A DNA stretch of 44,588 bases from a virus (Duplodnaviria; Caudoviricetes): positions 1-44,588 of IMG/VR virus record IMGVR_UViG_3300042355_000725. One strand, written 5' to 3'. How positions within the stretch are numbered: position 1 is the stretch's first letter; the number at the start of each line of letters is the position of its first letter. The translations under genes were made by a program, and so were the position numbers. This document shows, in pieces, positions 4,414 through 29,220 of this stretch. The notes under the pieces are model-generated. The model had not been told where the DNA came from, searched no databases, and was given only the letters and a program-made list of their open reading frames with translations.

Positions 4414-4769
4414 CCCTTCACCTTTGGTCCCGAAAACTCAATCCTTGCCACCATGCCGCGTCGAATGTCACAGGCCAAGCAACGCCGCGTTTTGATCTTC
4501 GCTCCGCAATCTGGGCACCTTTGTGTCGCCGATCGGCTGTTGACTCGCTGGCGGGCTTGGCGAACGTAAGCGTCCCATCGTTCTTTCCAACCCTCCTTCC
4601 CGAGCACCAACCATTGCGGGGTGTGTTTTCTGTGGCACCACCAAGTCGCAAACATGCCACCGAGGTCGGAGTCATGCTCGTCGTAACGGATCGCCCACTC
4701 GATCGCTTTAAGAATCTCAGCGTCAAAGTAGAGCTTCGAGGATTCTGATGGTGGTGTGTGGTTGTTCAT
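4386..4769 (-). CDS. Hypothetical protein with C-terminal Zn ribbon
   Basis: CPDCG...CLAC; start codon uncertain (overlaps the RusA 3' end). Confidence 0.55.
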   Translation of the reverse strand: MNNHTPPSESSKLYFDAEILKAIEWAIRYDEHDSDLGGMFATWWCHRKHTPQWLVLGKEGWKERWDAYVRQARQRVNSRSATQRCPDCGAKIKTRRCLACDIRRGMVARIEFSGPKVKGCKSQNYST

Positions 4770-5142
4770 GTCCGCTCGCAATCCATTTCTCGATAAGAAC
4801 CTGAGCCGCCTGCCCGTCATCGTGCCAGATCGCTTTGAGGGCGTCTAGCGCGGCTTTTGCTACGTTGTCCGCATCCGGTTTCGTTGCCTTGGGAACTCTC
4901 GGCATCGGCTTGGTTTTCCAGACCATGCTCTTCGGCCTTGGAAACACAAACATCATTTCGACACGCAATGCGCCTTCCAAGGGTGGTCCCGAGTACGCTT
5001 GCGAAGCCACTAAACGAATGCACTGTTTGAATGGCTCCGCGTCCGAGGGAGTGTAGACCCGGACAAACGCTCCTTGCTTGCGGCCCTTCGTTCTCGGCTG
5101 TGCGATCGGGATCCCTGGAATGTAGAGTTCAATCGGGGTCAT
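4723..5142 (-). CDS. rusA: RusA-family Holliday junction resolvase
   Basis: IPGIPIAQPR...KPDADNVAKAALDAL...WHDDGQ, matching the RusA catalytic Asp/Lys pattern. Confidence 0.9.
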   Translation of the reverse strand: MTPIELYIPGIPIAQPRTKGRKQGAFVRVYTPSDAEPFKQCIRLVASQAYSGPPLEGALRVEMMFVFPRPKSMVWKTKPMPRVPKATKPDADNVAKAALDALKAIWHDDGQAAQVLIEKWIASGHEQPHTTIRILEALL

Positions 5143-5202
5143 GTTATGTTGATTTCCATATAACGCCGTATTATGGTCAATTCAATATAATACTTGTTAT
5201 GG
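5141..5202 (+). other. Putative integron attI-like site at the head of the cassette array
   Basis: AT-rich ATAAC-gcc-GTATTAT-N12-ATAATAC-tt-GTTATGG. Its core GTTATGGC (5196-5203) is the exact complement of the next attC's R'' GCCATAAC (5942-5949). It lacks the attC L-box bulges. Confidence 0.55.
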
Positions 5203-5205
5203 CGA

Positions 5206-6006
5206 TTAGAACAGCATGTCCTGAGACAGACGTTCGACCGCTATTTCGCAATACTTCTCATCTAGCTCGATGCCAATTGCACGCCGCCCCATTTGCTTCG
5301 CCGCTACAAGCGTCGAACCACTTCCCATGAATGGGTCTAGCACAATCTGGCCTTCGTCTGTCGTTACGCGTATGATCTCCGCTATCAGCCCTACGGGCTT
5401 TTGTGTTTGGTGTTCCCTTTCGCTACTGTGCACTCGCTTTTCGTTGATTACGTTTGAGCCATCCAGGGCGTAGTATGTTGGCGTTCCGTTGCTGAAATGC
5501 ATAGCTAGTTCGTGCTGTGCCTTGAAACCATTGCCTAGCCCGGCGTTTGGTTTCGCCCAAACGATCAGCGATTGGTATCGCATCCCGCTTGACTCAATCG
5601 CTGGAACCAAAAACGGCACCATTCGCCAATCTGTAAACGCTGTGAATGTTCCGCCTGGTGGTATGTGTCTCGCACACCATCCGGCTACGTGTGACAGCAT
5701 CCAACCGATTCCGGCTGTTGTCATGTTGTCGTTTACAAACCATCCGACTTCACGGATGGTTTCGGACCGTAGGCCCATGCCTTTCGCCGCTCTCTTTCCT
5801 GCCTCGTTAAACCCGCCAGAGCAATATGGCGGATCTGTCACGACTGCGTTGACTGTTCCCAGTTGGTAGATGATTTCCCTGCAATCGCCATGATAAATGG
5901 TGATGCCCTTGTGATCGTAGTACGGTTTCAATGCAACTGATGCCATAACAATTGGATGCATCGAAGCCCCTGCAATGTCGTTTGGTGATTCCTTGAAATT
6001 TTCCAT
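5206..6006 (-). CDS. Orphan N6/N4 DNA methyltransferase (beta class), cassette 1
   Basis: VTDPPY, HQTQKP, VLDPFMGSGST, GIE. ATG and SD AAGGAAGG lie in the loop of attC1. Confidence 0.92.
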   Translation of the reverse strand: MENFKESPNDIAGASMHPIVMASVALKPYYDHKGITIYHGDCREIIYQLGTVNAVVTDPPYCSGGFNEAGKRAAKGMGLRSETIREVGWFVNDNMTTAGIGWMLSHVAGWCARHIPPGGTFTAFTDWRMVPFLVPAIESSGMRYQSLIVWAKPNAGLGNGFKAQHELAMHFSNGTPTYYALDGSNVINEKRVHSSEREHQTQKPVGLIAEIIRVTTDEGQIVLDPFMGSGSTLVAAKQMGRRAIGIELDEKYCEIAVERLSQDMLF

Positions 6007-6052
6007 TATTCAAACCTTCCTTGTTGGGGCTCGATGATCCCTATCGTTATCG
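5943..6052 (+). other. attC1 (110 bp)
   Basis: CCATAAC-aattg-GAT(G)CATC-GA(A)GCCCC...GGGGCTC-GATGATC-cctatc-GTTATCG. Confidence 0.85.
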
Positions 6053-6403
6053 TCAAATGTTTTTGCGACCCTGCTCGTTCTGGCCGCGTTGACCGAATGC
6101 TAGCGGGTAATAGTAGAACGCTCCGTCTCCATCGTCCTCAATGGTTCCCATGACACAATCATTCCAATAGACCTCCAGCTTCCCCTCGATGACGAGATCG
6201 TTACACCCCGTTTTCGCAGGCCACTGTCGCAGATACTCCAGAAGCTCACCAACTGCCTTGCATTCAGCGTCGTTGTGCTGAAAACGAACATTAGCGATTG
6301 CGTCGTTGAATCGCTCCTCCCATCCGTCCTGTAGCTTCTTTACGCAATCCAAACACCAGCCCGAATCCAAATGGTCGCAATTCATTAAATGCGGCATTGT
6401 CAT
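6053..6403 (-). CDS. Hypothetical protein with Cys/His motif, cassette 2
   Basis: MTMPHLMNCDHLDSGWCLDC...; SD GGGAG; fills the space between attC1 and attC2. Confidence 0.7.
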   Translation of the reverse strand: MTMPHLMNCDHLDSGWCLDCVKKLQDGWEERFNDAIANVRFQHNDAECKAVGELLEYLRQWPAKTGCNDLVIEGKLEVYWNDCVMGTIEDDGDGAFYYYPLAFGQRGQNEQGRKNI

Positions 6404-6415
6404 AATCCAATCTCC

Positions 6416-6504
6416 CGATAACAAAGCGGTGAACCGAAGTCGCCGGTCACCTAGTTCTCAATCCGAGTATCTTGGCGGCGACTCGGTTACCGCTGAGGTT
6501 CGTC
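6416..6504 (+). other. attC2 (89 bp)
   Basis: CGATAAC-aaagc-GGT(G)AACC-GA(A)GTCGCCG...CGGCGACTC-GGTTACC-gctgag-GTTCGTC. Confidence 0.88.
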
Positions 6505-6508
6505 TGAC

Positions 6509-6766
6509 CTAACGAATACCGTCTCGCTCAAAATCTCGCATTGCGGCCTCAAACAACTGATTTCCTACAGACCGTGGACGACTTCGCTCTGCTTCGGCCT
6601 TCAATGCCTTGTCTGCATCAATCGTCTTGTCCCGCACCATGCGAGCAAGAACTCGCAAGCACTGCCATAAAGTTTCTTCGTCAACATCGTAAACCTTCCT
6701 CAATTGGTCGTTAGCCAAAAGCCGACGAACAACGGATTGCACCGAAGCCTCATTCGTCTCGCTCAT
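6509..6766 (-). CDS. Hypothetical protein, cassette 3
   Basis: ATG and SD (GAGGT) lie in the loop of attC3. Confidence 0.7.
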   Translation of the reverse strand: MSETNEASVQSVVRRLLANDQLRKVYDVDEETLWQCLRVLARMVRDKTIDADKALKAEAERSRPRSVGNQLFEAAMRDFERDGIR

Positions 6767-6812
6767 TCTCGTTACCTCTTTCCTTTCGGCTCGGTGAATC
6801 CGAGCGTTCGCC
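6724..6812 (+). other. attC3 (89 bp)
   Basis: GACGAAC-aacgg-ATT(G)CACC-GA(A)GCC...GGCTC-GGTGAAT-ccgagc-GTTCGCC. Confidence 0.85.
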
Positions 6813-6841
6813 GTATCAACCCTTTGTCATGAAATTACGGA

Positions 6842-7045
6842 TTATTTAACAACTGACGCAAGGTAATCGACGGCAGACTGCAATCGATCCTTTCCAACGA
6901 GTGCTTGTATCAACCGCAAAACCTTTTTCGGGTTGTCTTGGAAGTTCCTAGCGATCCTGTAAACAAACACTTGCTCATCAGGTGACAAACCCGCCGAACA
7001 ATCGGATGAACCCAAGTGCTCGGTCGGCTGTTTTTCGTTGTCCAT
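6842..7045 (-). CDS. Hypothetical protein (67 aa), cassette 4
   Basis: ATG 7045 with SD GAGGAG inside the loop of attC4. Confidence 0.68.
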   Translation of the reverse strand: MDNEKQPTEHLGSSDCSAGLSPDEQVFVYRIARNFQDNPKKVLRLIQALVGKDRLQSAVDYLASVVK

Positions 7046-7082
7046 GTTTTCTCCTCGCACTGGGTTATCCTGTGCGTTAGGT
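6993..7082 (+). other. attC4 (90 bp)
   Basis: GCCGAAC-aatcg-GAT(G)AACC-CA(A)GTGC...GCACTG-GGTTATC-ctgtgc-GTTAGGT. Confidence 0.85.
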
Positions 7083-7505
7083 GGATTTTGCGTCCGCCAT
7101 TTCGCGGCGCGTTGCTTGCGGGGTTTGATCCGACACCCACAACAATCGTTTCTCTTGGACTTCGGGAGCCTTGTACCCAGAGAGTCGCAAGAAAATCTGT
7201 AGCGATTTCTTGATGAATCCTTCTAGGTCGTCACCAATCAAATGTAAAAACTGTTCTTCCGTTCGTTCGAGATCGTACTTACTACACCACTCTTCCATCA
7301 TGCGATGGCAAAACAACGCTTCCCCTTCGCCGCTGTCAATTTCCTCTTTGGTAGGGTTTGTTATTCGACCCTCAACGTACTCGGCTGTTCGTTCCCTAAT
7401 GTGCCGGTACACCTCGAACGCAAATTCAGAAATAAACTCGTCTACATCTCTTGCGTCCGTCTGCACTGCTTGATCGCGATTGGCGTCGTATTGAAACTTA
7501 ATCAT
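7077..7505 (-). CDS. Hypothetical acidic protein (142 aa), cassette 5
   Basis: MIKFQYDANRDQ...; SD AGGTGG overlaps R'' of attC5; the stop TAA is the TTA of the attC4 core. Confidence 0.7.
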   Translation of the reverse strand: MIKFQYDANRDQAVQTDARDVDEFISEFAFEVYRHIRERTAEYVEGRITNPTKEEIDSGEGEALFCHRMMEEWCSKYDLERTEEQFLHLIGDDLEGFIKKSLQIFLRLSGYKAPEVQEKRLLWVSDQTPQATRREMADAKST

Positions 7506-7511
7506 GAAACC

Positions 7512-7602
7512 ACCTAACAATTGCGTGAACCGAAGCCCCCGATTCGGCGTTTTTGAAATGGAGGCGTAACCGGCGGGGGCTCGGTTACGCATTGCGTTAT
7601 GG
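7512..7602 (+). other. attC5 (91 bp)
   Basis: ACCTAAC-aattg-CGT(G)AACC-GA(A)GCCCCCG...CGGGGGCTC-GGTTACG-cattgc-GTTATGG. Confidence 0.9.
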
Positions 7603-7905
7603 CAACTTCGCAGCTTCAGCCAAAGCACGTTGACAACATTCCAAAAACGACCAGTAGTCGCCAGAACCGTCTGCCTCTGGTTCTGGTGAAATCCATCCAG
7701 CCCTTGGGAGTCCGTTAGCCCGCACATGCTTTCCCCGATACCACAAATCGACCGATGGTTCGTCTTCATCCGTGTCTATAACGAGTGTGTGCCACTTGCT
7801 TTCTGCCACCAAATACAACAGCTTGCAAACAGCCTCTTTGACTTCAGTCGCATAACAACGCGATGGACTCGGAGGCGACTCACTGGCTGGTTTCTGTTCA
7901 CTCAT
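7597..7905 (-). CDS. Hypothetical protein (102 aa), cassette 6
   Basis: MSEQKPASESPPSPSRCYATE...; the stop TAA is the TTA of the attC5 core. Confidence 0.68.
   Translation of the reverse strand: MSEQKPASESPPSPSRCYATEVKEAVCKLLYLVAESKWHTLVIDTDEDEPSVDLWYRGKHVRANGLPRAGWISPEPEADGSGDYWSFLECCQRALAEAAKLP
7850..7880 (+). other. Degenerate attC6, left arm only
   Basis: GCATAAC-aacgc-GAT(G)GACT-CGGAGGCG has the same spacing as the other sites; no right arm found downstream. Confidence 0.55.
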
Positions 7906-7958
7906 TTGGTTTTTCTTTCTGGGGTTTTCCAAGGACACGCCATTACCGAAACTCCCCT

Positions 7959-8147
7959 CTACTGAAACTCTTTCATCACTTTCGCCCACGCATCTACGAG
8001 ATGCTGCGGTAGATTGCTTCGACCGTGCAACTCTCGCTGCACGTTGTACGCATGACGCACGGCCACATGCACCGGCTGCTCGCCGTCGATCGTCATCAAC
8101 GCAATACGCTCTTCAAATTTTTCGATGATGTCTTGCGGGTCAGCCAT
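7959..8147 (-). CDS. Conserved phage hypothetical protein
   Basis: FEERIALMTIDG motif (EERAAI..DG type) directly after the replication gene. Confidence 0.7.
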   Translation of the reverse strand: MADPQDIIEKFEERIALMTIDGEQPVHVAVRHAYNVQRELHGRSNLPQHLVDAWAKVMKEFQ

Positions 8148-9021
8148 GGATCACCGCCAGAGGTTTAGGTGGTGGTGTAGGAGAAGCCAGCTTCTTGATC
8201 GTGTCGTAATGCTCGCCATGAAGTTCGCAGGCTTTGCGCATTGCACCTTCGAGGTACGCAATCGCTTTCTTTGCCGTGCCGTTCCTGATCGCATCGCAGG
8301 AGTCAGCCACTACTTCGCGACAATCGAGCACAGTAGCCACAAAACACGCCCTCCACACTGCATCGCGGTTTTCAGGCGGTCTTGGCAATTTCGCGAAGCG
8401 ATTCGCTTCGGCTCTCACCCGTTCGATGAAATCCTCATCCACCACCACCCCCCACTTCACCAACCACTCAGCTTGGCTTGGCTTGGCTTGGCTTGGTTGG
8501 ATGTGGTTAGATGTGGTTAGATGTGGATAGGTAAGGATAGGTAAGGATAGACTTGGTAAGATCTGCGCGCGCGAAGACTCCCCCATAGCCCCCCCCATAG
8601 ACCCGGGCACAGGGTGGGTCTTAGGGTGGGTCTTAGGGTGGGTCTCAGGCTCAACAGTCGAAACAGTCGAAACAGTCGAAACGTCCGAGCGCCTCCCGAC
8701 GAACCCCCCCAATCGGTTGATATTAGCCTTGAGGTAGTTCGGGCAATGGTCGGCCCAATCGTGGACAACCAGACGGCACTGGTCGTCCTCGTCGAGCCAA
8801 CGACATTCGACGAGGGCTGCGACCAGATCGTCCGCGTTCCCGTCCCAGTCCACCATGACCGCGATGTCTTCGTTACAGAAGCGTCCTATATCGCCCCGAG
8901 GGCAATTCTTCGCGACGCCCGCCCAGAGCATTTCAAGCAGTCCCACAACGCCTCGGTTCGACTCCTTGAGTCGTCGCACCAATCGCTTGAACTTCAACAG
9001 ATCCATCGTGCCAACTTTCAT
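8140..9021 (-). CDS. Phage replication initiator protein
   Basis: wHTH-like N-domain (GLLEMLW...LVECRWLD...LVVHDWADH), repeat-rich linker, helical C-domain (AIAYLEGAMR); early-operon position. Confidence 0.75.
   Translation of the reverse strand: MKVGTMDLLKFKRLVRRLKESNRGVVGLLEMLWAGVAKNCPRGDIGRFCNEDIAVMVDWDGNADDLVAALVECRWLDEDDQCRLVVHDWADHCPNYLKANINRLGGFVGRRSDVSTVSTVSTVEPETHPKTHPKTHPVPGSMGGAMGESSRAQILPSLSLPILTYPHLTTSNHIQPSQAKPSQAEWLVKWGVVVDEDFIERVRAEANRFAKLPRPPENRDAVWRACFVATVLDCREVVADSCDAIRNGTAKKAIAYLEGAMRKACELHGEHYDTIKKLASPTPPPKPLAVIHG
8471..8682. repeat. Tandem-repeat cluster inside rep (candidate origin)
   Basis: GCTTG x5, ATGTGGWTAG x3, GTAAGGATAG x2, CCCCATAG x2, AGGGTGGGTCTY x3, AACAGTCGA x3. 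Confidence 0.85.
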
Positions 9022-9145
9022 GTTGTGCCTCGCTCCTACGGCGTTTCAACTAAAATGAAAAGTACCCGGTCAACAGGTAGTAGCCGGGCGCTACTGCGAT
9101 TTGTGGTGCCTGTCTCACCGTAAGGTGCCTGTCGGCTCGGGCCTT

Positions 9146-9457
9146 TTATGAGGCCGTCAAAAGCAACTGACGATCGGCAACGGACAAGTTATCCATCGCT
9201 TCCATCTTTGCCTTGAGACGATACGAACGCACTTCCATCTCAAGGTCCGCGATTCGAGCTTGATACTCGATGCACTTTCCTTGAGCTATTCGCGCCGCTT
9301 CGTTTGCTTCATGCAAGGCATCATTGAAGCTTGCTTCGGCTGCACGCACGGCATGAATCAGGCGACTAACGTCCTTCTGGGTTCGTCGCCCCATAGGCAA
9401 GGTGTTGTTTGAATCAATAACCACACCAGCCTTCTCGAAATGCTTGTCAATAGACAT
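9146..9457 (-). CDS. Hypothetical coiled-coil protein
   Basis: Same-strand ORF filling the operon. Confidence 0.65.
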   Translation of the reverse strand: MSIDKHFEKAGVVIDSNNTLPMGRRTQKDVSRLIHAVRAAEASFNDALHEANEAARIAQGKCIEYQARIADLEMEVRSYRLKAKMEAMDNLSVADRQLLLTAS

Positions 9458-9478
9458 AGCACACGTCCATTTCTCGGT

Positions 9479-10186
9479 CTAAGACCGCAGTAATCCTGCT
9501 AGTTCATCGCAAACCGTGGCTAAACGCTCAGCCAAACGCGGCTCAGATTTCTCTAGCAGCTTCCATCCATCTGCTGGCACGTCTGCCAACAACTCGATGA
9601 TTCCTTCAATCTGTCCAATCTTTTGCTTGAGATAGACAGGCAAATCGATACCGTAATCCTGTTTTGGTGCAGGCTCTCGTTTCTCCGGCTTAATGCCAAG
9701 CTCAGCGTTAACTGCTTGTCGGACAATATTGGCCGTTACCGGCTTGCCCTGCTCCTTGGCAATTTCAACGGCTGCTTTTGCGACTCGCTGAACGTCTTGC
9801 TTGCGTAGAGATTGCAAGTCTCGCGGAGAACCCGGCTTCGTCGTGTCCTCGACGGCTAACCTCGCAAACTCTTTTACGATTGTGGGCTTCCATTCGACTG
9901 GACTATTTCCCACTGCATTGGGTAATATTTTTGGGTCTGGTAGTTTCGGACGGATCGCCGCAGCAGCGATAAGATTCAATACTTGCTGCCGTTCGATGCC
10001 GAAATCGTATCCAACACGCTCTTTCAAATACGCATCCCAGCTTCCAAAACCATCTTCCTTGTACAACTCATCGTCGCGAATCTCTTTCAATGCGTTTCCG
10101 GTTTCAACAAACGCTTCCATCGTTCCGCGAATTGATTTTTCCAGCGTTCGCAACCGCTGCTTCCGATCTACTGATAGCTTTGCCAT
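9479..10186 (-). CDS. Conserved phage protein (DUF3102-like N-terminus)
   Basis: LEKSIRG...FVETGNALKEIRDDELYK..GFGSWDAYLKER; SD AAGGGTG before ATG 10186. Confidence 0.65.
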   Translation of the reverse strand: MAKLSVDRKQRLRTLEKSIRGTMEAFVETGNALKEIRDDELYKEDGFGSWDAYLKERVGYDFGIERQQVLNLIAAAAIRPKLPDPKILPNAVGNSPVEWKPTIVKEFARLAVEDTTKPGSPRDLQSLRKQDVQRVAKAAVEIAKEQGKPVTANIVRQAVNAELGIKPEKREPAPKQDYGIDLPVYLKQKIGQIEGIIELLADVPADGWKLLEKSEPRLAERLATVCDELAGLLRS

Positions 10187-10260
10187 CACTTCACCCTTCA
10201 CTTGAATGCCAGCGTTAAAACGGTGCTGGCTAACCGTTGCCTTTCGGCGATTCAAAAAAA

Positions 10261-10330
10261 ACCGAGCAGGACTTGCACCCGCGCGCAGTTGGGCTATGAG
10301 AGGCCCAGTCGCACCTCACTGTGAGTCGGT
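10261..10330 (-). ncRNA. Degenerate tRNA-like cloverleaf followed by a U-run
   Basis: ACCGA / CTCA-cag-TGAG / TGGGC-ctctcata-GCCCA / GCGGG-tgcaagt-CCTGC / TCGGT then a T-run. Confidence 0.4.
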
Positions 10331-10337
10331 CTTGCCG

Positions 10338-10661
10338 TCACACCTCGACCGGATGCGGCGCGTCGAGAAGTGACAAATCGGCTTCTGTTACCGTTACCTT
10401 TTGTCCAAGGACTGCGCGATCGTAGTACATCACCGCTCGGATGGGCCCAAGCGAACTTTCGACGGCTCCCACTTCTGGCGACGACAAGTTTTGAATTTCT
10501 CGCTTGTCACTAAACACATGCAATAGCGTGTGCAGTTCTTCGATCTTCGTTGCCTTATACCATCTGGCTTCCACTCGCAAACGATCTACAATCTCTTCAG
10601 GCAGCGTCTCAACCGCATCCGCTAGAGACCGCAACGCCACTACCAATTCTTCTCGTTTCAT
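10338..10661 (-). CDS. Hypothetical protein
   Basis: SD AAGGGGA; operon position. Confidence 0.7.
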   Translation of the reverse strand: MKREELVVALRSLADAVETLPEEIVDRLRVEARWYKATKIEELHTLLHVFSDKREIQNLSSPEVGAVESSLGPIRAVMYYDRAVLGQKVTVTEADLSLLDAPHPVEV

Positions 10662-10675
10662 ATTTCGTTATCCCC

Positions 10676-11071
10676 TTACGTTGTTGGTTGTTGTAAAAAT
10701 GCCCCGCTTCCCACGGGGCCGGGAGTTGTCGTTGTAGGTGTCTGTACTCCTAATGTTCCACCATGCTCGTAGACGGTCGCGCTGTGGCCACTGACGGAAC
10801 ACAGTCGCGATCCAACAGCCCGGATCAGACCGAGCTTTTCCAGTTCCTTTGCACGCTTGCGAATCGAATCGTGTAGCGTGATATTGCCGTTGGCGATCTG
10901 TGATGCTGCCTCTCGCGCCGTGGCCAATCCACCACACCGCGTCAAACCCTCAAGAAACTGTGATCTGCGAATCGCAACCGAAACTCTCGTCTCGATCGCC
11001 GCTTCCTTGGATGTCTCGGGATCCGAAGCCCTAGCACGTTTAGCCCAGTCAAACAGATCGCCAGTGCTCAT
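10676..11071 (-). CDS. Putative winged-HTH phage protein
   Basis: ARASDPETS motif plus SIRKRAKELEKLGLI...SG; ATGA-coupled to bet. Confidence 0.7.
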   Translation of the reverse strand: MSTGDLFDWAKRARASDPETSKEAAIETRVSVAIRRSQFLEGLTRCGGLATAREAASQIANGNITLHDSIRKRAKELEKLGLIRAVGSRLCSVSGHSATVYEHGGTLGVQTPTTTTPGPVGSGAFLQQPTT

Positions 11072-11766
11072 TCCTGGGCCTCCGCTTGCGGCTCGGTTTC
11101 CACCAAATCTGGATCCGCCTCGAAGACCACCGGGGCCGGAGTTATCACGCCGATCTTCTGCTTGAGCGATTCCGTTCGTGATGACGGAGCCACCGCGTCC
11201 ACAGTCAACGTCGTCTCGACCGCGATCATGCGCTCGTACTCGTCAGGCTCCATGATGCCCGCAAAGCCGAACGCATAGCGGATGCACTGGATCGCGGCCT
11301 TGTGGCGTAGCATCCTGGCAGGCCACTGACGCCACACGTCGGTATTCCGCTTGCACTCAGCAAGGTACTCCGTCACCTTGCTTGCGTGCCTGCGATCCTT
11401 GCGGTAGATCACCGCTGTTACCGCGATCAACGTCCCGGCGTCAAAGTGGTCCTCGAACTCCATGCCGTCCATCATCGGATGGGAGTTCGCCAAGTTAAGC
11501 CAGCCGTCCACGCTAACTATGGGTTGGATCCCGCCACCCTTGGTAGGGAAAGCGTAGATTTCCTTCGTCAATGGGTTCAGGTTGTACTCCTTAGCCACAA
11601 GCATAAACGCCGCTAGTTGCTCCCGAGTGCATTCCTTGGGGACCACCGTCGCCCGGATCGTCGCCTCGAACGCCTCTGGCTCCATGCCGTACTGGTGAGC
11701 CAAATCCCTCAGAACGCTTTTGCGTTCGGTGCTCTTGGCAATTCCGACTTCTTCAACTGCACTCAT
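11068..11766 (-). CDS. bet: Single-strand annealing recombinase (lambda Bet/RecT family)
   Basis: YNLNPLTKEIYAFP...IVSVDGW...WRQWPARMLRHKAAIQCIRYAFGFAGI. Confidence 0.92.
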   Translation of the reverse strand: MSAVEEVGIAKSTERKSVLRDLAHQYGMEPEAFEATIRATVVPKECTREQLAAFMLVAKEYNLNPLTKEIYAFPTKGGGIQPIVSVDGWLNLANSHPMMDGMEFEDHFDAGTLIAVTAVIYRKDRRHASKVTEYLAECKRNTDVWRQWPARMLRHKAAIQCIRYAFGFAGIMEPDEYERMIAVETTLTVDAVAPSSRTESLKQKIGVITPAPVVFEADPDLVETEPQAEAQE

Positions 11767-16738: not shown

Positions 16739-18276
16739 ATCAACTCCACGTCTGCACTGAGTGTTGTTTGCAGGATTACCGCGCGATCGCCGTCATGTAA
16801 CGCCAATACGAAGTCGCCAACGTCCAGCCATGGGAACAAACCTAGTTTGTCTTCGACCAGTACCGGCCTCGCGTTTATCGCTTGGCTGTATACGCCAGAA
16901 GCATTGACATAGTTAGCCGCTTTCCAGCGTCCGCTATGAGGAGCCGAATAGGCTCCGATATAGAGTCCAGCCGTGCTTGTCTTGTCGGTGATCTGCACCA
17001 GCATCGCTCCCCATTGCGGGCTGGAGGCAGAAGGGATCCGAGGCCACATGGGCAAGGATTCGTCGCGAAGATCAACAAAGGTTCGCCCTTGCTTGTAAGT
17101 TACGGCTGCTGCCTCGGAGCCCAAGGGTATCGAAAAGTAGCCAGCCATCTCAATACGCTCGGTCCTGCGTGATGCGCGAAAGTAGCCCTTGATGGTTCGC
17201 TCGACGGCCCGAACGCATCGCTCGTAGGTGGCTGCTTGCGTGTCCAGCATGGATTGAGCGGCTGCGAGTCCCAGTCCTGCGAGTGTGCGTATCACGATCG
17301 GAGGCATCACCAACGAGGAAAAGTGCATCATTCCGCCAGAGCCCGATTGCGTCGGCTGGTAAAACGTCGGCTGCGTCAGCCCAAGATTGCCGATGCTGTT
17401 TTGAGGAAACTGAACGAACGGAGAAATGTAATCGGGACGCATTCGGAATCCATATCGATCCAAATACGGAACCGTCCACGTCCATTCCAAGTCTTCATAC
17501 CTTTTGATGATGTACCGCTTTGCCGGAGTGCCGACATTGAGGGCTGCTTGCAAGTTGACTTGCGGTTCGCCTGCTAATTCCATTCTCCATCGGCCAGGGT
17601 ACGAGTCCAAGTCGGCCCATATCACCGTCCCTGTCATTGCCGCAAGGGTGCGGAGGCGGTTCGGAATGTGCGAGTTGCGAGTGTACTGATGGAAACCTAT
17701 TGATGCTGCCTGTCGCACCGAGGCGGGAACGTCGGCATGTAGCCGAAATTCGCCGACTTGAAATGGATCACCACCCGACGCCAAGGTCGGGTCGATCGTC
17801 TCGGCGACGTGATACTCCGCCAGCAAGTTTTCGTCTTGCTCCTGGTTTGTGATGCCTTGGTTTTCGTAGATCGATTCGGCGTCTGTAACGGACGACCATG
17901 TGGATGGCGGGTTGTTTATGTCGGCAAAGTTGAGCGTGCCGACAATAAACTCGATTTTTACGATTTGCAAATCCTGGATACCAAGAAACTCAACTCTGCG
18001 TGGCACCAAAGGGTAGAGACGAATTTCGGTGTCCGGCCCGCCATCGTTCGCGCGCGATGTGTCCCGAACAATGCACTCTAACGAGCCGCTAAAGTCACGC
18101 TTTAGCAGTTTCTTCGCATCATCCTTCTTCATGCAGACATGCACTTCGTGAAACGCATGTCGCTTGAGCAGGACTTGGTTGTGGGCTGATTTACCAACCG
18201 CCGAAAAGACAGGGTATTCTTTTTTGGCTCCCGTAGATTCGCGAATGATGATGCGTTGCTGTGCTGGGTCAGGCAT
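16735..18276 (-). CDS. Putative tail/baseplate protein
   Basis: 513 aa, coupled to both neighbours; function inferred from position only. Confidence 0.5.
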   Translation of the reverse strand: MPDPAQQRIIIRESTGAKKEYPVFSAVGKSAHNQVLLKRHAFHEVHVCMKKDDAKKLLKRDFSGSLECIVRDTSRANDGGPDTEIRLYPLVPRRVEFLGIQDLQIVKIEFIVGTLNFADINNPPSTWSSVTDAESIYENQGITNQEQDENLLAEYHVAETIDPTLASGGDPFQVGEFRLHADVPASVRQAASIGFHQYTRNSHIPNRLRTLAAMTGTVIWADLDSYPGRWRMELAGEPQVNLQAALNVGTPAKRYIIKRYEDLEWTWTVPYLDRYGFRMRPDYISPFVQFPQNSIGNLGLTQPTFYQPTQSGSGGMMHFSSLVMPPIVIRTLAGLGLAAAQSMLDTQAATYERCVRAVERTIKGYFRASRRTERIEMAGYFSIPLGSEAAAVTYKQGRTFVDLRDESLPMWPRIPSASSPQWGAMLVQITDKTSTAGLYIGAYSAPHSGRWKAANYVNASGVYSQAINARPVLVEDKLGLFPWLDVGDFVLALHDGDRAVILQTTLSADVELI

Positions 18277-19909
18277 GCACCACCCCGCGTTGGCCGAAGG
18301 TTGGGTTGGGGGTCACTTGCTTTAAGACCTCGTTGATTCGCCACTCAGGCTGAAACGGTGGCTTGCCTGTTCGGAGCCACTCCTTGGCTTCGCGAACTCC
18401 CGCGCGGGCTGCTGCCTCCACGGTCATGGGATTGACTCCGCAACGACAGTTGTAGTCCCATGGGGGGGTGAAGTAGTCCCATACGGGATCGTCTCGGCGG
18501 TAGACGTTGGTGCCATCGAGCCCGAGGGACTCCATCTCTAGGTGATCGTGGCGCACTCGCGTGTCTCGGATCGCGTCGTAGGCTTGGTAGGGAAACGCGG
18601 CTGCGACGATCGGGTTTGATGCCAAGGTCTCCCTCCCATCGCGGAATGCTGCCTGGAGGTTGGTTCGGTAGACGTTCTCCAAGTGGGCCCGTCCGATGGG
18701 GGAGCCATCGAGAGCCTCACTGACGGCCTTCTCGAATCCCTTGCGGCTCGTCCCCTCGTCCACGTCGTAGACCAGGACGTTTCGGATGCGGTCGATGGTG
18801 TCGGTCGAAATCGGAGCCGTGATGAAGAACGCTCGCTCCTGCGCGTATTTGTCCACCGCCTCCCATTGCTGGCGGGTCATAATGTTTCGCTCGGCAAGTC
18901 GCTTGGCTGCTATCTCAATGAGCGGGAACCGCAATGCGTCGTCTGACTCGTCGAAGAACGTGAAACGCGGGAATGGTGGTTTCGGTGGCTTTTGGGGCGG
19001 TGTTTGCCGGATGGTGGTTTCGAACTCCTTCGCCAGCCATGGCGGGAAGTTGCGGTAGAGGTAATCCATCCCCGCCGTCCACGAGTATAGGAACGAGTCG
19101 CGGATATGGCGGTATACAAAGGTGCGGAATCGCCCGAGTGGTGTTGGTAGCCACGCCAGGATTTGCGGGATCGGAAGGGATCGCTTCTTCCAGAGCGAGT
19201 CCATGATCCGCGTTCGGACGGTCTGTGCGGCTCCCTCGGAGGCGATCAGGCTGCGTCCGATGATGCGGTCGAGGATGCTGCCCTTGGTTTGGCGGGGTGC
19301 GGTGGACAGTAAGATGTTGCTAGTAGACGGATCGAACGTGCCTCGGTTGCCGGTGGCGGATTTGATCTGGTTCGGCTCGAACGCCGCGTACACGGTTGCC
19401 CTTGCAGTGTTACCGTCTTTTGCGTTTACGAAAATTACCCCGTCGTGCCCTTCGTCTTTTGCGTCCCACAATTCCGCGTGATCGGGAGCGTCATCGCTGT
19501 AAGACATATCGATTACTTTTGGGTTCTTCATGCTGACATACAATGGAAAAACCCGGCCTTTCCCGCTGGCTTGTCGTTCAGCATGCAGGTTTGCCATATC
19601 TGGACTGCTTGTTGTCCATATTGCCCCTGGAGCTTTTTTTGAAGTTGCGCCAGATGGCTTAAATTCGTCGAAATCGAGTTGGCTTCCAGTCCCGTGATAT
19701 ACCACCAGCGGCTTCCCGTTCTCATCAACCACCCTCGAATCACCAAACCACGCCTTGAACTGCGGAGTCTCGGTGACGTGAGGCTTGGCGGGTTTCGAGG
19801 CTGTGCGACGAGCCGCGACCGATTGCGCGGACTCGACCAACTCCCAACGATGATTCTCATTGAGGCGGTAGGTCTTGCCGTTTTGGGTCTTTGTCTGGCC
19901 GGGTTGCAT
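18269..19909 (-). CDS. MuF/SPP1 gp7 head morphogenesis protein with N-terminal ART-PolyVal ADP-ribosyltransferase domain
   Basis: N-terminal FKAWFGDSRVVDENGKPLVVYHGT...AFEPNQIKSATGNRGTFD; C-terminal LENVYRTN...DTRVRHDH...PPWDYNCRC; SD AGAGGA before ATG 19909. Confidence 0.88.
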   Translation of the reverse strand: MQPGQTKTQNGKTYRLNENHRWELVESAQSVAARRTASKPAKPHVTETPQFKAWFGDSRVVDENGKPLVVYHGTGSQLDFDEFKPSGATSKKAPGAIWTTSSPDMANLHAERQASGKGRVFPLYVSMKNPKVIDMSYSDDAPDHAELWDAKDEGHDGVIFVNAKDGNTARATVYAAFEPNQIKSATGNRGTFDPSTSNILLSTAPRQTKGSILDRIIGRSLIASEGAAQTVRTRIMDSLWKKRSLPIPQILAWLPTPLGRFRTFVYRHIRDSFLYSWTAGMDYLYRNFPPWLAKEFETTIRQTPPQKPPKPPFPRFTFFDESDDALRFPLIEIAAKRLAERNIMTRQQWEAVDKYAQERAFFITAPISTDTIDRIRNVLVYDVDEGTSRKGFEKAVSEALDGSPIGRAHLENVYRTNLQAAFRDGRETLASNPIVAAAFPYQAYDAIRDTRVRHDHLEMESLGLDGTNVYRRDDPVWDYFTPPWDYNCRCGVNPMTVEAAARAGVREAKEWLRTGKPPFQPEWRINEVLKQVTPNPTFGQRGVVHA

Positions 19910-20150
19910 TGGTATTCCTCTTTGCTGCATGCGCCGCGTCTCGTATCGCTTGCTTGGCCTCTAATTCCTTGAGGACGGCTTGTTCTCTGGGATTCAGGAC
20001 TTCACCAAATCGAATTGCCTCATGCAATTCATCGAGGTTGATCGAATCGATTAGGTGTTGCTGATCGTCGGAAAGTCCTTCCTGTGTCGTCAACGGGAAT
20101 TGCAATGGGTCTATGGTTGAGTTTGCTGGGTTGGGTATGGGGGTATCCAT
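19857..20150 (-). CDS. Small acidic protein, candidate antitoxin/immunity protein
   Basis: SD GAGG; starts inside the last codons of the zeta-like domain and overlaps the MuF start. Confidence 0.55.
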   Translation of the reverse strand: MDTPIPNPANSTIDPLQFPLTTQEGLSDDQQHLIDSINLDELHEAIRFGEVLNPREQAVLKELEAKQAIRDAAHAAKRNTNATRPDKDPKRQDLPPQ

Positions 20151-23100
20151 TTCTTTGCCTCTTCAATGTACTCAGGGCTAGTCAACCCCTTGGCGATTGC
20201 CTCGGGTATGTCGCCAGCAAGATACCTGTGAGCTACGTTCCTATGCAACCTGTCTTCCAGTCCGTTTGCCGCGTTTTGATCCTCTTCAGCAACTCGCTGC
20301 TCCAGATATTTAATGGCCTCATTTCGGTCGGTGATTAGGCGCTTTTCCCCGCGATTATCGCTGCGATTGTCCACAACGTGAACCTCGACATCATGTCGCC
20401 TCTTCAAAAGTTCTAATGTTGCCTTTCTGGCCTTGATGTTGGCTTCAAAAGCAATGTTGGCGGGTACGGTACGCGGTAATTCTCCCCGCTTGTGCAAACC
20501 CATGGCTCGCTTGGCGATGCCGGTAAGTGCGGATTCGGGTCCGCGATCGATGAACACATGCAGAGGTTTGTATCCATTCGCGATCGCATCATCTAGTTTT
20601 TGTTCCAGTTTTGGATAGCTATCGGATGCTTGATCCAGAACGATCGGGTATTCCTGTTGATTGTAGTAAAGCCCGGTTGCTGTTCCCTTCCCTGAGCCAC
20701 CGCCACCAGCAAGAATCAGCATTCGATTATTGCCCTTGCCTTTCATGCCGGACAACGCCTCCGAATACAACCGTTTGTTCAAATAGCTACTCGCTTCGTG
20801 AACATCGGCAGCGTTCGTACCGACGTACTGCGGGAAGTTGGTGCGCCATTCGTCGGTGTTTAGCACTACTCCTTGTAGATTTCCTTGGGCATCATACATG
20901 CCGTTGGATTGCAAATACTTGGCCTTGTGTTGTTCGTAGTTTTCCGCCGCGTCTCGTTGCGTAATCTGGTCAATCGTCTCTAGTTGCGACTCCATCGAAG
21001 GCGTCTGCGATTGAGGCTGGCTCGGCGAAGACTGGGGATGCGGTGATACCGTCGAAGACGTAGGTTTCGGCGGTTGCGGTTGCGAAGGCTTTGGGGTTGC
21101 CGAGGAAGTCTGTGCATCGCCGGGTTGTCGTGCCGAAGCGTGCGCAGATTGCGTAGCATGACCTACAGGTAGCTTTTGCCCTGTCCCTGGGTCAAACGTC
21201 GGCATCGGTCGTCCAGGCTGCGCCATCGGATGCTGTTGCGTTTGCGCCGGTGCTTGTTGAACATGCTGGGGATGGGGTGACGGCTGTGGACGATCGGATC
21301 GTTGCCATCGGTGATGCTGGTTGAGCGTGTATTGCCGACCATTGAACGTGCGAACGGTTCCAGGTGCAAGATTCATCAATGCAGGATCCTCTTGTTCGAG
21401 TTCTGCAAGTCGCCTGCGCAATCGTTCCGCCTCTTCGAGCTTTGCAGTCGATTGAACGATCTTTGGCGCATTGTCCTCGGATTCGGGCTGGTTTCCGGTC
21501 AGTGCCGCTTCGACTTCTCGGAGTCGCTGTTGCTTTTTCTCCAACTCTTCTTGCTTGGCGAACTTTTGCCCGATCTTGGCTTGCAAGGATGCTTTGTTGG
21601 CTTCCTGGGCAGAAATAGCCTGAATCTGATCGTCGGCTCGCTTCTGCATGTTGGCCGAGTATTCGATCGACTTCAAAGACGGTTGCGAACTAGAATGGAT
21701 TTTGTCGCCGCTCGGAAGATCGAGAAAGAGACGCCGCGTCTCATGGTCTATCGGTGACAATTTCCATTTTTCCGTCCATGGCTCCTTACCATAGGAACGC
21801 GATCGCCAGCTAGGAAAGTATTCTGCTGGCTTGTAGTGCAACGGAACGCCTCGATATTCTCCGATGTGGATTGGCTCGATGTTTCCGCGATCCCATTCGT
21901 CCGAGTTCGCTGCTTCGTGATCGATTTCCGTCATTCGCGACGCAAGGGCTTCCTCGGCGGCTTTTCGTTCGTTGTAGGTGGTTTCACCTATCTTCATCTC
22001 GAAGTCTGGACGGCTGGCAAAATGAGCCAAGTCGGCTTTATGCCGTTCCAGTTGCGATTGCATTTCTGGTAGCGACTTGTCCGCTTGAGAAAGCAATTCT
22101 CGTGTCTTGGTTTGCTCGCGTATGTGACGTTGCTGGCCCTGTCGCAGACGCTTGATTGCGTCCTCTAGCTCCACTTTTTCCATCGTCAGAGGATTACCCG
22201 ATGCGATCGCCATCAACTGGTCGGGGGTAACGGTTTCCGTGTCTGCGTCCGCGACTTCTCTTGCATCGCTCTTGCCAGCCATGACTTGGTTGATGAATTT
22301 GGCCTTGGTAGATACGGTTTGCCAGAAGAAAGAATCCAACGAACCTTCTTGAATGTACGGGATGTTCAACAATGGCTTGCCCAGCTTGGCCAGTTCGTTG
22401 CCGTGCCGGAAACCGCGTCCGACACGTTGCTCTAGCGCTGATGGGGTCCAGGGAACGTCCAAATGGTGCATGGCCATGACCTTGTTCTGGACATTGCATC
22501 CCGTGCCCAGTTTCTTCGTCGATCCAATCGCGACAAGGATTTCTCCGCGTCGCATCTTGTCCATGGCGTCTTCTTTGGCTTGACCCTTGAGCGCCGAAAA
22601 ATCGGCAATCTTCTCTCGGGGAATCCCACCCGCTACCAGCTTGTCGATGATGTCGTCGTACAATCGGAAGGATCCTGTGCTTCCGAGGTTTGCGTCGGCA
22701 AACTCTTCATTGAACGTGATGTCTTCATCTTCTTCCTGGCGTTCTTCGCTTTCTGCATCGTCACTGACGACCGCCTCGGCTGCTCGCGATGTGGTGGTAG
22801 ACGGATTGACACCCACATCCGAAAAGATCAGTTGCGTGAACCCTGGGTTTTCCCTTGAGAGCCGTAGGACGTTGCGAACGCATTGATTTGTTTTGCTGTT
22901 AGGTAGATCCGGCGCGTTGTCGTCTAGCAGACGCAAATCGACGGCTCCCTTGCGGCCATCGGTACAAATGACCAGCATGTTGTCTTCGCCCTTTTCGGCC
23001 TGACCACGTTTTCCGCTGAGTGCCTTGGCTCGCTCTTGCAGATTGCCCATGAGGGCTTCGATTGCAGGATGCTTTGGAGAGACGGTTTCTTGATCGACCT

Positions 23101-26100
23101 TCTTTGGCCTTAGAATTACCGGGGATCCAGCCGGACGCGACGGATCGTTTATTTCCGCCGCTTGCGCAGGTGTTAGCTTGAGATCGTCCGCCCGTTGCAC
23201 GTCGATCACTTGTCGAGCCATCGCCATCAGCTCGGGAACATTGACAAACTTCGAGAATCGATCCGTAGGCTTGTATTCGCCAGCCACGTTAAAGTTATGC
23301 CGCGTTTCGATCGATCCGAAGACGCTTGCCCAATCATCGAAATTGGAGATTCCACGTTCTGCAAGTGCGTTCGGCTGCAAATACCGCTGCATCGTGTACA
23401 GTTCGGCCATGGTGTTATCCAAAGGCGTTCCTGTGGCAAACACAACACCACGGCCACCGTTGTGTTCTTGCAAGTATCTGCAACGCATCAGCATCGTGGT
23501 TGCTCGCTGGCTTCGGCCTTGCGGGATACCCTTGACTCGGTTTTGCTTGCTGTAGGTCGGTAGAGTCTTGTAGTAGTGGGCTTCGTCCACAAACAGTTGA
23601 TCGATTCCTGTGTCCTCGAACGCTACCGCATCATCCTTGCCCGCAGCCGTCAAGATGCGTTCCAGTTTTACTTTGAGGTTTTTGATTGCGGTTTCGATTT
23701 GCTTGGCGCGATTGCGGCCATCTTTTCCGCCCTCACCCTCTGCGGCATTTTTTGCCGATTCCATTTCCGCGATTTCATCTCGCATGTACTGCGCTTCCAC
23801 CTCGGGGCGCATTTTGAGCATGTTCAAATTGTCATGCGTCATAATGACCAGATCGTAGTCGCCCGTCGCCATGCGTGAGACAAGCTCCTTGCGCTTCTTG
23901 GCTGTCATGTTCCCCTGGGTACTGAGGATTCGAGCGCCAGGATAGAGCAGTTGAGCATCTCGGGTAATTTGCTCGATATTGGCCTTGAGACACGCGATGC
24001 ACGGCTTTTTAGCCAAGCCTAGACGCCTCAATTCCATGGCGCTTGCGATCATGGCATAGGTTTTGCCCATTCCCACTTCGTGGGCAGCTAAAGCCGTACC
24101 GTTGGTAACGACTTGCCAGACGAAATTGGGAATGTGCGGATGCAACTTGATCGCCGGGTTCATTCCTGGGAATGTTTGGTGCGATCCGTCGATTTGCAAA
24201 TCGCGAATGTTGTTGAAGTTGTCGTTGAAGTATCGCGCAAGACGAATCGCGCGATCGTCGTCTGACCAAACCCAATCCCCGAACTTGTCCTTCAACTCTT
24301 GGACTTTGGCCGCAACATCGTTGGTCGCCTTGCGATTGACGACTTCATTTCCGTCAGCATCGACGGCCCGTATTTGATGCGTTCCGGTTTCGTCTGTGTA
24401 TTCGTCGATCCCTCCCTTTACTTCGATTTTTCGGCCTGTCAGTGCCGCTTCAAGTAACTTGATGAACCCGACTCCATGCGTGTCCCATTGTTGCGTTTGA
24501 TATATTCGGCCACTACTGTACCGCCTTTGCCCCTCGGAAGACCATTTGGCTTTCCAGCCTCCGAGCCCTCCTGCAAGAGTAGAGTGCGAAATCTGGAAGT
24601 AGCGAGATTCCGTATTGAGAGTGTCGGCTGCAAATTGAGCAACATCCGAAGGTGGAAGCCATGCAGCGCCGAGGTTGACAGAGATTTCGCTGATGTCCTT
24701 ATCCTCGGGTTGTACCTTGGAAAGAGCATCGACGTTTACCTGGAACTTTGGATCGGCTTCGGCTGCGGCCTTGGCTGCAATCAACTTTTGTCGAACATTA
24801 CCCGACAAGTAGACCGCTGCCTGTTGCCATCCCGCGCTGGGATCCTCGAAAGCAATGCCTGATTGCGACAGTTCTCGCCCCGCTTGCTCAATCGTCTTCC
24901 CTGTGATCTTTGCAATGTGCTCGATGTTAACTCCACCGAACTCATGGAACGATACTCCGATGGCATCCGACACGTTGTCTACTTTGTCCAAGCTCGGAGT
25001 GTGCCGTACTGTATCCTTGAAAAAGATGTCTGCCTTCTTTGCTTGTTTGGTTCCAGCGTTGTAGTTCTCAAGAGATCGCAAAAAGAACTGGTCGTCTCCC
25101 GAATCTTGCATCGCGCGAGTATTAGCACGATCGTTAATAGGTCCAAATTGGGCGACGAACTTGTCGTATGCTTGGTTCAACGCTTCGCGATCCTTTGAGG
25201 CATCTTCTCCCTTGAGCTGCGTATTGATTGCGGCTCGACCGGCTGCAAGAATCGCGAGTTGCCCTTCGATGCGGGCTAGCTGCGTCTTGTTGGCCTCTCG
25301 CTGTACCAGTCCGCCTCCCACTCGCTGAAATAGCTTGCCATCGATAATCCGATAGCCACCTTCGCGAACATCATCAGGCGCTGGCATCGACTCAGGAATG
25401 AATGCCTGCTTCGAGTTTTGGACTGGGTGATACACACCTTCGGGTAGGTTGTCGATAAACTTTGCCAGCTTAGTGCGTAGCTGGTCGCGACCGACCCGAC
25501 GCCGATCCTCTGCGGACACTGGGGTTCCGTCTTCGAATACTAACCGGCGTTTTTTCGATACTGGATCGACATCGACTCTGACGGGTCGCCCTAAAGCCTC
25601 AGACAACTCTTCCGGCGATGCCGCAGACACTCCCTTTTCTTCCGCCGATCGCATGGTCGCGCTGCGATCCAATCGACCAAGAATGTTTTCTGGGTGTTCG
25701 GCAAAATACTTGTTGATCGTGATTGGTTCACCGCCGTCAGGATCGGGGACTTGTGTCGTTTGGGTCCAATCCGGCCCTGGGACACGTTTGCCATCTTTCC
25801 AGTGATAGAGTCGGCCAAGCGAATCAACCGTGATTCCGGTGAAACCTGGTTGTTTTGGATCGGCTTCGCTAGGCGTGTTTTCAAGTGTGACAGGTTGTTC
25901 CCCAGGTATTCTCTTGCGCAGGATCACCATGTCGGTGACTACCGAAGTACCCGCGTTCTCTTGGTGCATTCCAGTCGGAAACCGAACGGCTGCAACAAAC
26001 TCGCACTTGTCAGCAAGCAATTTACGAATCTTGTCGTCCGGTTTGTCCATTGTGCCGGTGCTGGTGATGTGCATGATGAGCCCGCCCGGCTGTGCAACAT

Positions 26101-28954: not shown

Positions 28955-29220
28955 ATTTTTCCTCCGCAAGCCTTGTCAACGTAAAGTTGCACGGCCTTGG
29001 ATTTCGCTTGTTGTGCTAGTTCTTCGTCACCGTAGGCTCGGAGCCAAAGTTCGTACACTTGTTGGTAGTTGGTCGCGTCGTAGTTCCCCTCGTCAATCTT
29101 CCGCTTTGCCTGGAGCGCTGGAAGCATCTCCTGCAGCGCCACGATCTGCTCGGCGTGCAGATCGAACGGGTTTAGCCCGTACTCCCATCCGACTCGGATC
29201 CTTCGTTCGTATTTTTTTTT
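28951..29220 (-). CDS. -1 frameshift extension of the tail assembly chaperone (gpGT-like; fusion ~182 aa)
   Basis: The -1 frame is open from the A9 run (29212-29220): KYERRIRVGWEYGLNPFDLHAEQIVALQEML... to the stop at 28951. Confidence 0.7.
   Translation of the reverse strand, partial: KKKYERRIRVGWEYGLNPFDLHAEQIVALQEMLPALQAKRKIDEGNYDATNYQQVYELWLRAYGDEELAQQAKSKAVQLYVDKACGGKI

Follow-up and report, generated by a model that had tools for sequence, protein, structure and literature searches.

A mirror-image integron cassette array in a tailed phage, with probable translation starts in its attC sites

The closest described relatives of the cassette array analysed here are the sedentary chromosomal integrons of the Planctomycetota and the clusters of attC sites lacking integron integrases (CALINs) reported in phages (Qi et al., 2023; PMC9892861). 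The array is carried by IMG/VR virus record IMGVR_UViG_3300042355_000725 (Caudoviricetes), the whole of which, 44,588 nucleotides, is referred to below as the window. The record is that of a temperate tailed phage with genes for a terminase, a Mu-type portal, an integrase, RecE/RecT, a replication initiator and RusA, and the array sits between the replication gene and rusA with six small genes, five intact attC sites and one half site. With at least two clustered attC sites and no nearby intI the window is a CALIN by definition, as judged with a scanner of our own and not with IntegronFinder.

The phage attC share their anatomy, sequence family, crossover in R' and length (median 90–91 nt) with those of the Planctomycetota integrons, and the host attI beside intI is built similarly to an attI-like site in the phage. 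In contrast to the host integrons, the phage genes lie on the bottom strand, the attC stands before its gene, about one third of the sites carry a Shine-Dalgarno (SD) sequence and an ATG, with a left arm that is probably translated, and the array would be entered by the phage operon from its far end instead of from the promoter Pc, the promoter lying closest to the oldest cassette. In chromosomal integrons, individual cassettes with a promoter of their own can also be inverted, toxin-antitoxin cassettes being an example. The orientation of gene against array is the same in these, and was seen in 14 of the 170 bacterial cassettes examined here, whereas the phage arrays are wholly inverted and their genes appear promoterless.

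The phage CALINs of Qi et al. (2023) are likewise attC clusters without intI, often with DNA methyltransferase cassettes, and five of six phage attC tested by those authors recombined with IntI1. The sections of that article covered here describe typical same-direction arrays and discuss neither polarity nor start codons. By its strand assignment phage TJE1 is conventional, and the annotated genes of PH101 lie on the strand given as bottom, which makes that array inverted, without loop starts; the inversion may be visible in a figure of the article. The two published PH101 attC are found in the cultured phage H101 (KR534323, L403) at 1890–2557, where their bottom strand is the coding strand of the neighbouring genes. 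A 2009 report, known here as cited in PMC11511950, resembles the present proposal in that attC sequence was translated and affected cassette expression; in that case a top-strand open reading frame (ORF) acts on the next cassette, whereas here a bottom-strand start is fused in frame to the cassette's own gene. The literature searched, which also took in parts of PMC8352920 and 10.1101/2023.11.21.568050 and left subscription journals and bioRxiv supplements outside, yielded no published description of inverted polarity or loop starts, and Qi et al. (2023) as the sole source of phage attC arrays. Phage attC arrays as such are thus already published, and what is added here is their inverted polarity and the starts in the loop.

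Anatomy of the attC sites and polarity of the cassettes

The window was scanned for the standard top-strand form of attC, written as AAC, five bases and an L'' box of eight with base 4 bulged, followed by an L' box of seven, six bases and GTT. Exactly five sites were obtained, attC1 (5943–6052), attC2 (6416–6504), attC3 (6724–6812), attC4 (6993–7082) and attC5 (7512–7602), with scores of 12–16 and the plus strand as top strand in all of them; attC5 also gave one weaker mirror call on the minus strand. The half attC at 7850–7877, also on the plus strand, has R'' and the left arm and is missing the right arm. Ten Markov-resampled windows gave two chance matches with a best score of 12. The scanner is strict and missed the published attC of TJE1, PH101, P12002L and MW202573, so that short and variant attC escape detection.

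At each of the five sites L'' minus its fourth base pairs at seven of seven positions with its own L', though the boxes differ between sites, and two bases are bulged, both on the left arm; in top-strand order they are G and A. According to the portion of PMC5027507 consulted, extrahelical bases lie on the arm opposite the cleaved AAC; by this rule the bottom strand, the one expected to recombine, is the minus strand, which likewise encodes all six genes. The earlier note on this DNA had read the plus strand as the attC top strand from the bulge positions and had placed all six ORFs on the minus strand, in reverse of the usual cassette polarity, and both statements held (five of five sites, six of six genes). 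The R'' core is complementary to the cassette's own first bases at 7, 7, 7, 6, 7 and 6 of 7 positions for cassettes 1–6, as counted by eye. Complementarity between R'' and the previous R' is expected under either polarity and was therefore discarded as a criterion for it.

A search pattern built from the window sites was matched by 154 viral loci, out of about 190 stored stretches, and by 132 genome stretches, out of about 2,200 (4 of 64 parts scanned), with long flanks for the first 80 only of each set. Dropping duplicates and sites scoring below 12 left 202 attC from viruses, 289 from bacteria and 5 from the window, and 100 viral, 170 bacterial and 3 window cassettes were analysed, window cassette 5 being counted under its identical copy. 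Viral pairs that had the left flank alone in common also shared their attC (n = 19, median identity 0.92), and in pairs with the right flank alone in common the attC were at background (n = 20, 0.57 versus 0.57); seven further viral pairs met neither flank threshold. Because the attC is co-inherited with the left flank and not with the right, the break is placed at the G|TT of R', as in ordinary integrons. Together with the exact ends of shared cassettes described below, this standard crossover means that the genes are truly inverted and that each attC is to be assigned to the gene that it stands in front of.

It is hardly credible that the integrase instead uses the other strand, leaving the cassettes conventional and deriving each start signal from the attC of the neighbouring cassette. 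If the minus strand is taken as the top strand, the stops in TAAC cores and the ATG of GTTATG do have a conventional appearance, the first bulged bottom-strand base is C and not the usual G (PMC5027507, as far as covered), and the same leader is found on many genes. The flank figures contradict this explanation, however, and with it the opposite-strand recombination that the earlier note had considered; the exact ends of shared cassettes speak against it as well, bacterial arrays with the same bulges come out conventional under the same strand rule, and the leaders use two frames about equally (31 and 30, the third being unused) without ever being out of frame, which shuffling at R'' would not preserve.

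A codon model assigned 88 of the 100 viral cassettes as inverted, 4 as conventional and 8 as ambiguous, against 14, 127 and 29 of the 170 bacterial ones. The cruder longest-ORF rule gave 53, 8 and 39 for viral and 13, 113 and 44 for bacterial cassettes. When contigs were grouped, 39 of 40 viral groups were inverted and 1 conventional, and of 38 bacterial groups 2 were inverted, 34 conventional and 2 tied (Fisher P 5e-18, for groups that are not phylogenetically independent). The comparison of ORF polarity between phage and host arrays that the earlier note had proposed thus separates the two, and the inverted architecture is general among phages with this attC family. Exceptions exist in both directions: one viral array (L039) is conventional, as is an array beside an intI-like gene in a provirus record (G039), and a bacterial array on a contig of a Planctomycetaceae metagenome-assembled genome (L227) starts with inverted, phage-like cassettes, one of them with a loop start, and continues conventionally. 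This mixed array suggests flow between phage and host pools. The phage-adapted cassette class proposed in the earlier note as distinct from that of the host is accordingly supported by polarity and loop starts and is not absolute.

The TAA stops of cassettes 5 and 6 are, as had been stated, the TTA right after the crossover G (G7076 and G7596; two of five sites). Their proposed standing as a special feature was not upheld, since such stops are a common cassette trait seen in mirror image and TAA cores were used in 66 of 106 viral and 70 of 157 bacterial cases.

Start signals in the attC loop

A loop start was counted where an ATG with an SD match of at least 4 nt opened a frame that stayed open for at least 40 codons past R''. 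Such starts were present on 61 of 197 viral bottom strands and on 0 of 191 viral top strands, the corresponding bacterial counts being 4 of 278 and 1 of 281. When every SD and ATG pair in a loop was taken regardless of frame, 61 of 61 viral pairs lay in the frame of the gene (29.3 expected), compared with 4 of 13 bacterial pairs. The 64 leaders, the three of the window included, represent 53 protein families, in frame in 53 of 53 against 26.0 expected (log10 P −18), and by our own arithmetic P would still be about 5e-10 if each leader had odds of two in three. An alternative ATG with an SD within the next 25 codons was found for one of the 64 leaders, so that the earlier note's reservation, that the true starts might map outside the attC, is not borne out by this comparison. 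Loops with leaders were 71% purine with an inner folding free energy (dG) of −4.1, compared with 53–54% and −8.8 to −9.7 elsewhere, and in RNA folds the SD-AUG region had a median unpaired fraction of 0.59 versus 0.35. From these sequence properties it is likely that the attC supplies the ribosome-binding site, the start codon and the first 12–20 amino acids of the gene. The mRNA hairpin may in addition tune translation, as the earlier note had suggested.

A search with the left-arm motif returned 18 distinct matches, comprising 14 full sites, 1 half site, 2 chimeric sites and 1 site cut by a contig end. All 14 full sites had a leader, which was open for at least 40 codons in 13 and cut by the locus end in one. 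The same leader is reused across genes, eight gene families being found on one and eleven on another.

In the window the loop starts belong to attC1, attC3 and attC4, where the SD and ATG had been placed in the earlier note at 6006, 6766 and 7045. These positions were confirmed, and the three ATGs have the best SD among the candidate starts of their ORFs (4, 5 and 5 nt). The N-terminal peptides named there, ASMHPIVM, ASVQSVVR and LGSSDCSA, with PSPSRCYA at the half site, were also found as claimed. The view that the start is built into the attC loop is supported for these three sites and fails for attC2 and for attC5, the latter with a host-like paired loop; the genes behind them start at 6403 and 7505 with the SD beside R''. 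As a means of detecting the cassette class the peptides do exist, but they mark just about one third of the viral sites (61 of 197).

Cassette 1 encodes an N6/N4 DNA methyltransferase (5206..6006; PF01555) whose predicted start lies in the loop of attC1, so that its first ~21 residues would be encoded by the attC; its phrog_67 match begins at residue 26. The 116-residue product of cassette 2 (6053..6403) belongs to no family and starts outside the attC. The gene of cassette 3 (6509..6766; 85 aa) has its predicted start in the unpaired loop of attC3, and a GTG at 6742 also has a 4-nt SD. For cassette 4 (6842..7045; 67 aa) the predicted start is in the loop of attC4. The SD of cassette 5 (7077..7505; 142 aa) overlaps R'' and its stop lies in the core of attC4; the leader of cassette 6 (7597..7905; 102 aa) runs through the half site and its stop lies in the core of attC5. 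All six genes are on the minus strand.

Homologues allow the leaders to be compared with free-standing genes. For the methyltransferase, 33 of 34 viral loci are without an attC call and several homologues start at the MxPYY position, ~25 residues later, so that the leader is seen as an addition to an ordinary phage gene. Among cassette 3 homologues the leader is N-terminal in 13 of 15, behind an upstream extension in one and absent in one. In the cassette 6 family SRCYA is invariant in 11 of 11 members and the Met stands in the same column in 10 of 11; of the nine viral stretches matched for this cassette, none was confirmed as a viral locus.

The same data bear on the possibility that the cassettes are inverted but that the genuine starts are located at R'' or beyond it, the loop ATGs being a by-product of a purine-rich attC bottom strand. 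Purine skew of attC bottom strands is described in the consulted part of PMC5027507, the methyltransferase has an in-frame ATG at 5946, in the R'' core, near the start of its free-standing homologues, and the N-termini of homologues were set by gene callers and not by experiments. This explanation is nevertheless considered highly improbable, because it does not account for the in-frame counts (61 of 61 viral, 4 of 13 bacterial) or for the near absence of alternative starts, the ATG at 5946 has no SD, and cassette 4 contains no other Met.

Insertion site, shared cassettes and recombinase

The array had been delimited as 5943..7905. Its start lies further left, at an attI-like site (5143..5202, plus strand) made of two imperfect direct repeats with a period of 27, followed by G|TT at 5196/5197. 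A related phage (L001) is 95–97% identical to the window on both sides of the array and has three other cassettes inside; its identity stops at 5201, just past GTTATG at 5196–5201, and resumes at 7961. One lake contig departs from the window after 5201 in the same way, and a further relative with the same replication gene (G003) has a third array, with five sites. Sites 85% identical to the attI-like site stand at the array heads of G006, G045 and G004, and other families of head site exist. In four host loci a similar simple site with upstream repeats is present between intI and the first cassette, and the window site also resembles ones that adjoin intI in phages. The site at 5143–5202 has no homology to attC, and we infer that it works as an attI. 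Reading 5158–5202 as a small minus-strand attC was rejected, as this segment is conserved backbone and not cassette-specific. The array of L316 (G006) at 6111–11736 has a near-identical attI-like site and is flanked by genes for a phage integrase and an excisionase-like protein, so that this head site is not tied to one place in the genome.

Cassettes of the window recur in other phages. Cassette 2 is found at 98.7% identity in L115, 100% in L118 and 90% in L007, cassette 3 at 97% in L014, cassette 4 at 91% in L115 with a different loop, and cassette 5 at 100% over 528 nt in L153, among other neighbours. The shared units of cassettes 2–5 end exactly from G|TT to G|TT (R' to R'). In L115 cassette 2 is joined straight to cassette 4 with cassette 3 skipped, and contigs from three of eight lake runs contain the same skip of 308 nt, which corresponds in length to cassette 3; this reflects related phages and is not proof of excision in one clone. 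Joints with sides shorter than 30 letters (among them a 270-nt skip of cassette 4 and a back-joint from 6495 to 6045) were not taken for excision circles, as they can be put down to related phages in which the cassettes are ordered differently. The reordering of several cassettes across phages points, on comparison of their sequences, to a gene-swapping pool among phages.

Half sites stand at array ends in L001 and L413 as well as in the window, and the half site at 7850–7877 probably fixes the oldest cassette in place. In L001 (4424–4640) the half attC provides the last residues and the stop of a conserved 62-aa gene (KEFQCNQLL), the window copy of which stops at KEFQ. A small-protein cassette of the TNERK.../PPANRPPK type with a long promoter-like spacer (L001 5000–5530, L312 15730–16350) recurs in unrelated phages and may be a self-expressed regulator or a toxin-antitoxin-like unit.

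Integron integrases were sought in 50 viral records with such sites by the TIGR02249 cut-off of 265 bits. Four records were above the cut-off and a fifth reached 259 bits, and all five proteins retain the IntI-specific insertion and the catalytic residues. An intI next to the array, as in a complete integron, is thus absent from the window and present in five other phages with such arrays. In these five the gene lies left of the array on the bottom strand (for G021, assuming a circular contig), and is therefore canonical in its orientation towards attC, yet co-directional with the cassette genes. In a tree from which partial matches below 230 aa were left out, the five viral IntI form one clade (95/95) on long branches, separate from the 23 IntI of hosts that were included. 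IntI is present in 20 of 61 genomes from the host's class. No Pc was recognised upstream of the attI-like site, no promoter scan having been made; since all genes face that site, a Pc there would read them antisense.

The absence of IntI from the window, its RecT and YqaJ genes, the chimeric sites and swapped loops, and the L001 half site that meets the backbone at a shared ACTGAAAC could also be explained if the hairpins descended from host attC and the arrays were now shuffled by phage RecE/RecT homologous recombination and not by IntI. This is thought unlikely, as the G|TT junctions fall between attC of background similarity (0.57), junctions are also found at the attI-like site, without attC homology, and intact IntI genes adjoin such arrays in five phages. 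Homologous recombination does act in addition, as chimeric sites and swapped loops occur; in L417 and L420 the left arm of a chimeric attC derives from one family and the right arm from another.

Proposed mechanism and phage setting

Established by comparison of the sequences are the anatomy and strand of the attC, the inverted genes, the G|TT-to-G|TT units shared among phages and the fixed insertion point at 5196. The array is very likely a mirror-image integron array, with the standard G|TT crossover, bottom-strand genes, start signals in the attC and IntI acting in trans. The cassettes would be moved by an integron integrase provided by a Planctomycete host or by phages with their own intI, which would insert circles at the attI-like site beside rusA, the promoter-distal end. 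With time the cassettes would be displaced towards the replication gene and, once there, be fixed by losing their non-coding right arm while retaining the coding left arm. In place of Pc, the transcript of the phage operon would run through the array, entering at the oldest cassette. In an inverted cassette the attC upstream of the gene is part of the unit, so that a start signal in its loop would move with the gene and function at any position; loops with leaders would have become purine-rich and unpaired, and swaps within loops by homologous recombination would add variation.

Several observations weigh against this mechanism. The integrase of the window does not qualify as an IntI (it reaches 21.9 of 265 bits, lacks the IntI insertion and lies 5.6 kb from the array), so that this phage would have to borrow one, and 45 of the 50 viral records, many of which are fragments, are without a near-full IntI of their own, G039 having an IntI-like gene. 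The phage IntI clade is long-branched and was compared with 23 Planctomycetia IntI only. Chimeric sites or different loops on the same gene are found in L417, L420, L009/L078 and P0017. Two thirds of the viral attC are without a loop start, and the transcript of attC4 is predicted to refold, its minimum free energy structure being an alternative one with a partly paired SD (mean unpaired 0.5). The replication origin is a guess from the repeats at 8646–8681.

The wider claim that Planctomycete phages run a mirror-image integron system of their own, with a phage IntI clade, attI sites, a pool of ordinary phage genes and attC as a portable translation-start module, in which inversion speeds shuffling and walls the pool off, is put forward tentatively and falls a little short of an even chance. 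Bottom strands on the lagging-strand template fold and recombine more, and 25 of 30 chromosomal integrons avoid this arrangement (PMC5371416, seen in part). Speculatively, for genes that run with the replication fork, it is only by inversion that the recombining strand would lie on the lagging-strand template, which could make shuffling fast, provided that the origin corresponds to the repeats in the replication gene. Opposite polarity could also, again speculatively, mean that a host cassette ends up antisense and silent in a phage array, and a phage cassette antisense in a host array.

If correct, the mechanism would offer a site-specific route to part of phage mosaicism, namely the variable set of small genes that separates rusA from the replication genes, or int from xis, and integrons, known as bacterial tools, would have a phage-side counterpart with reversed logic in which natural attC sites encode peptides and starts. 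The genesis of cassettes is an open question, and a few attC leaders joined in frame to ordinary phage genes would make it testable through a tractable record. Annotation pipelines that assume the attC to lie 3' of its gene will mis-assign such cassettes.

The host is probably a Planctomycete, because the search pattern from the window attC matches mainly Planctomycetota genomes. The stretch was found in 24 of 24 listed sequencing runs, every one a lake-water metagenome and none an RNA run. No cultured phage with this array was present among 50,697 records, which gave just short methyltransferase matches, and searching metagenome contigs for rusA turned up no close relative, the 14 distantly similar loci (36–47%) being left out of the analysis. 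The minus strand encodes every annotated backbone gene between 13422 and 1163. These include rusA (4723..5142; PF05866), downstream of the array, and upstream of it the 62-aa gene and the replication initiator (7959..9021; phrog_9474), which are common to L001 and G003. Further upstream, two genes of the window (9146–10255) are replaced in L001 (1135–3562) by a 597-aa helicase-like gene and a 216-aa gene. Within the replication gene a candidate origin at 8475–8681 contains pentamer and decamer repeats, a 30-nt inverted repeat (8575–8645) and 9-nt tandem repeats (8646–8681); cumulative GC skew located no origin. Elsewhere in the window a 2952-aa minus-strand gene product (20111–28969) has a Mu-type portal domain fused to DarB-like methyltransferase/helicase and zeta-toxin-like domains, and next to it, at 18269–19930, a MuF protein with an ART-PolyVal domain is encoded.

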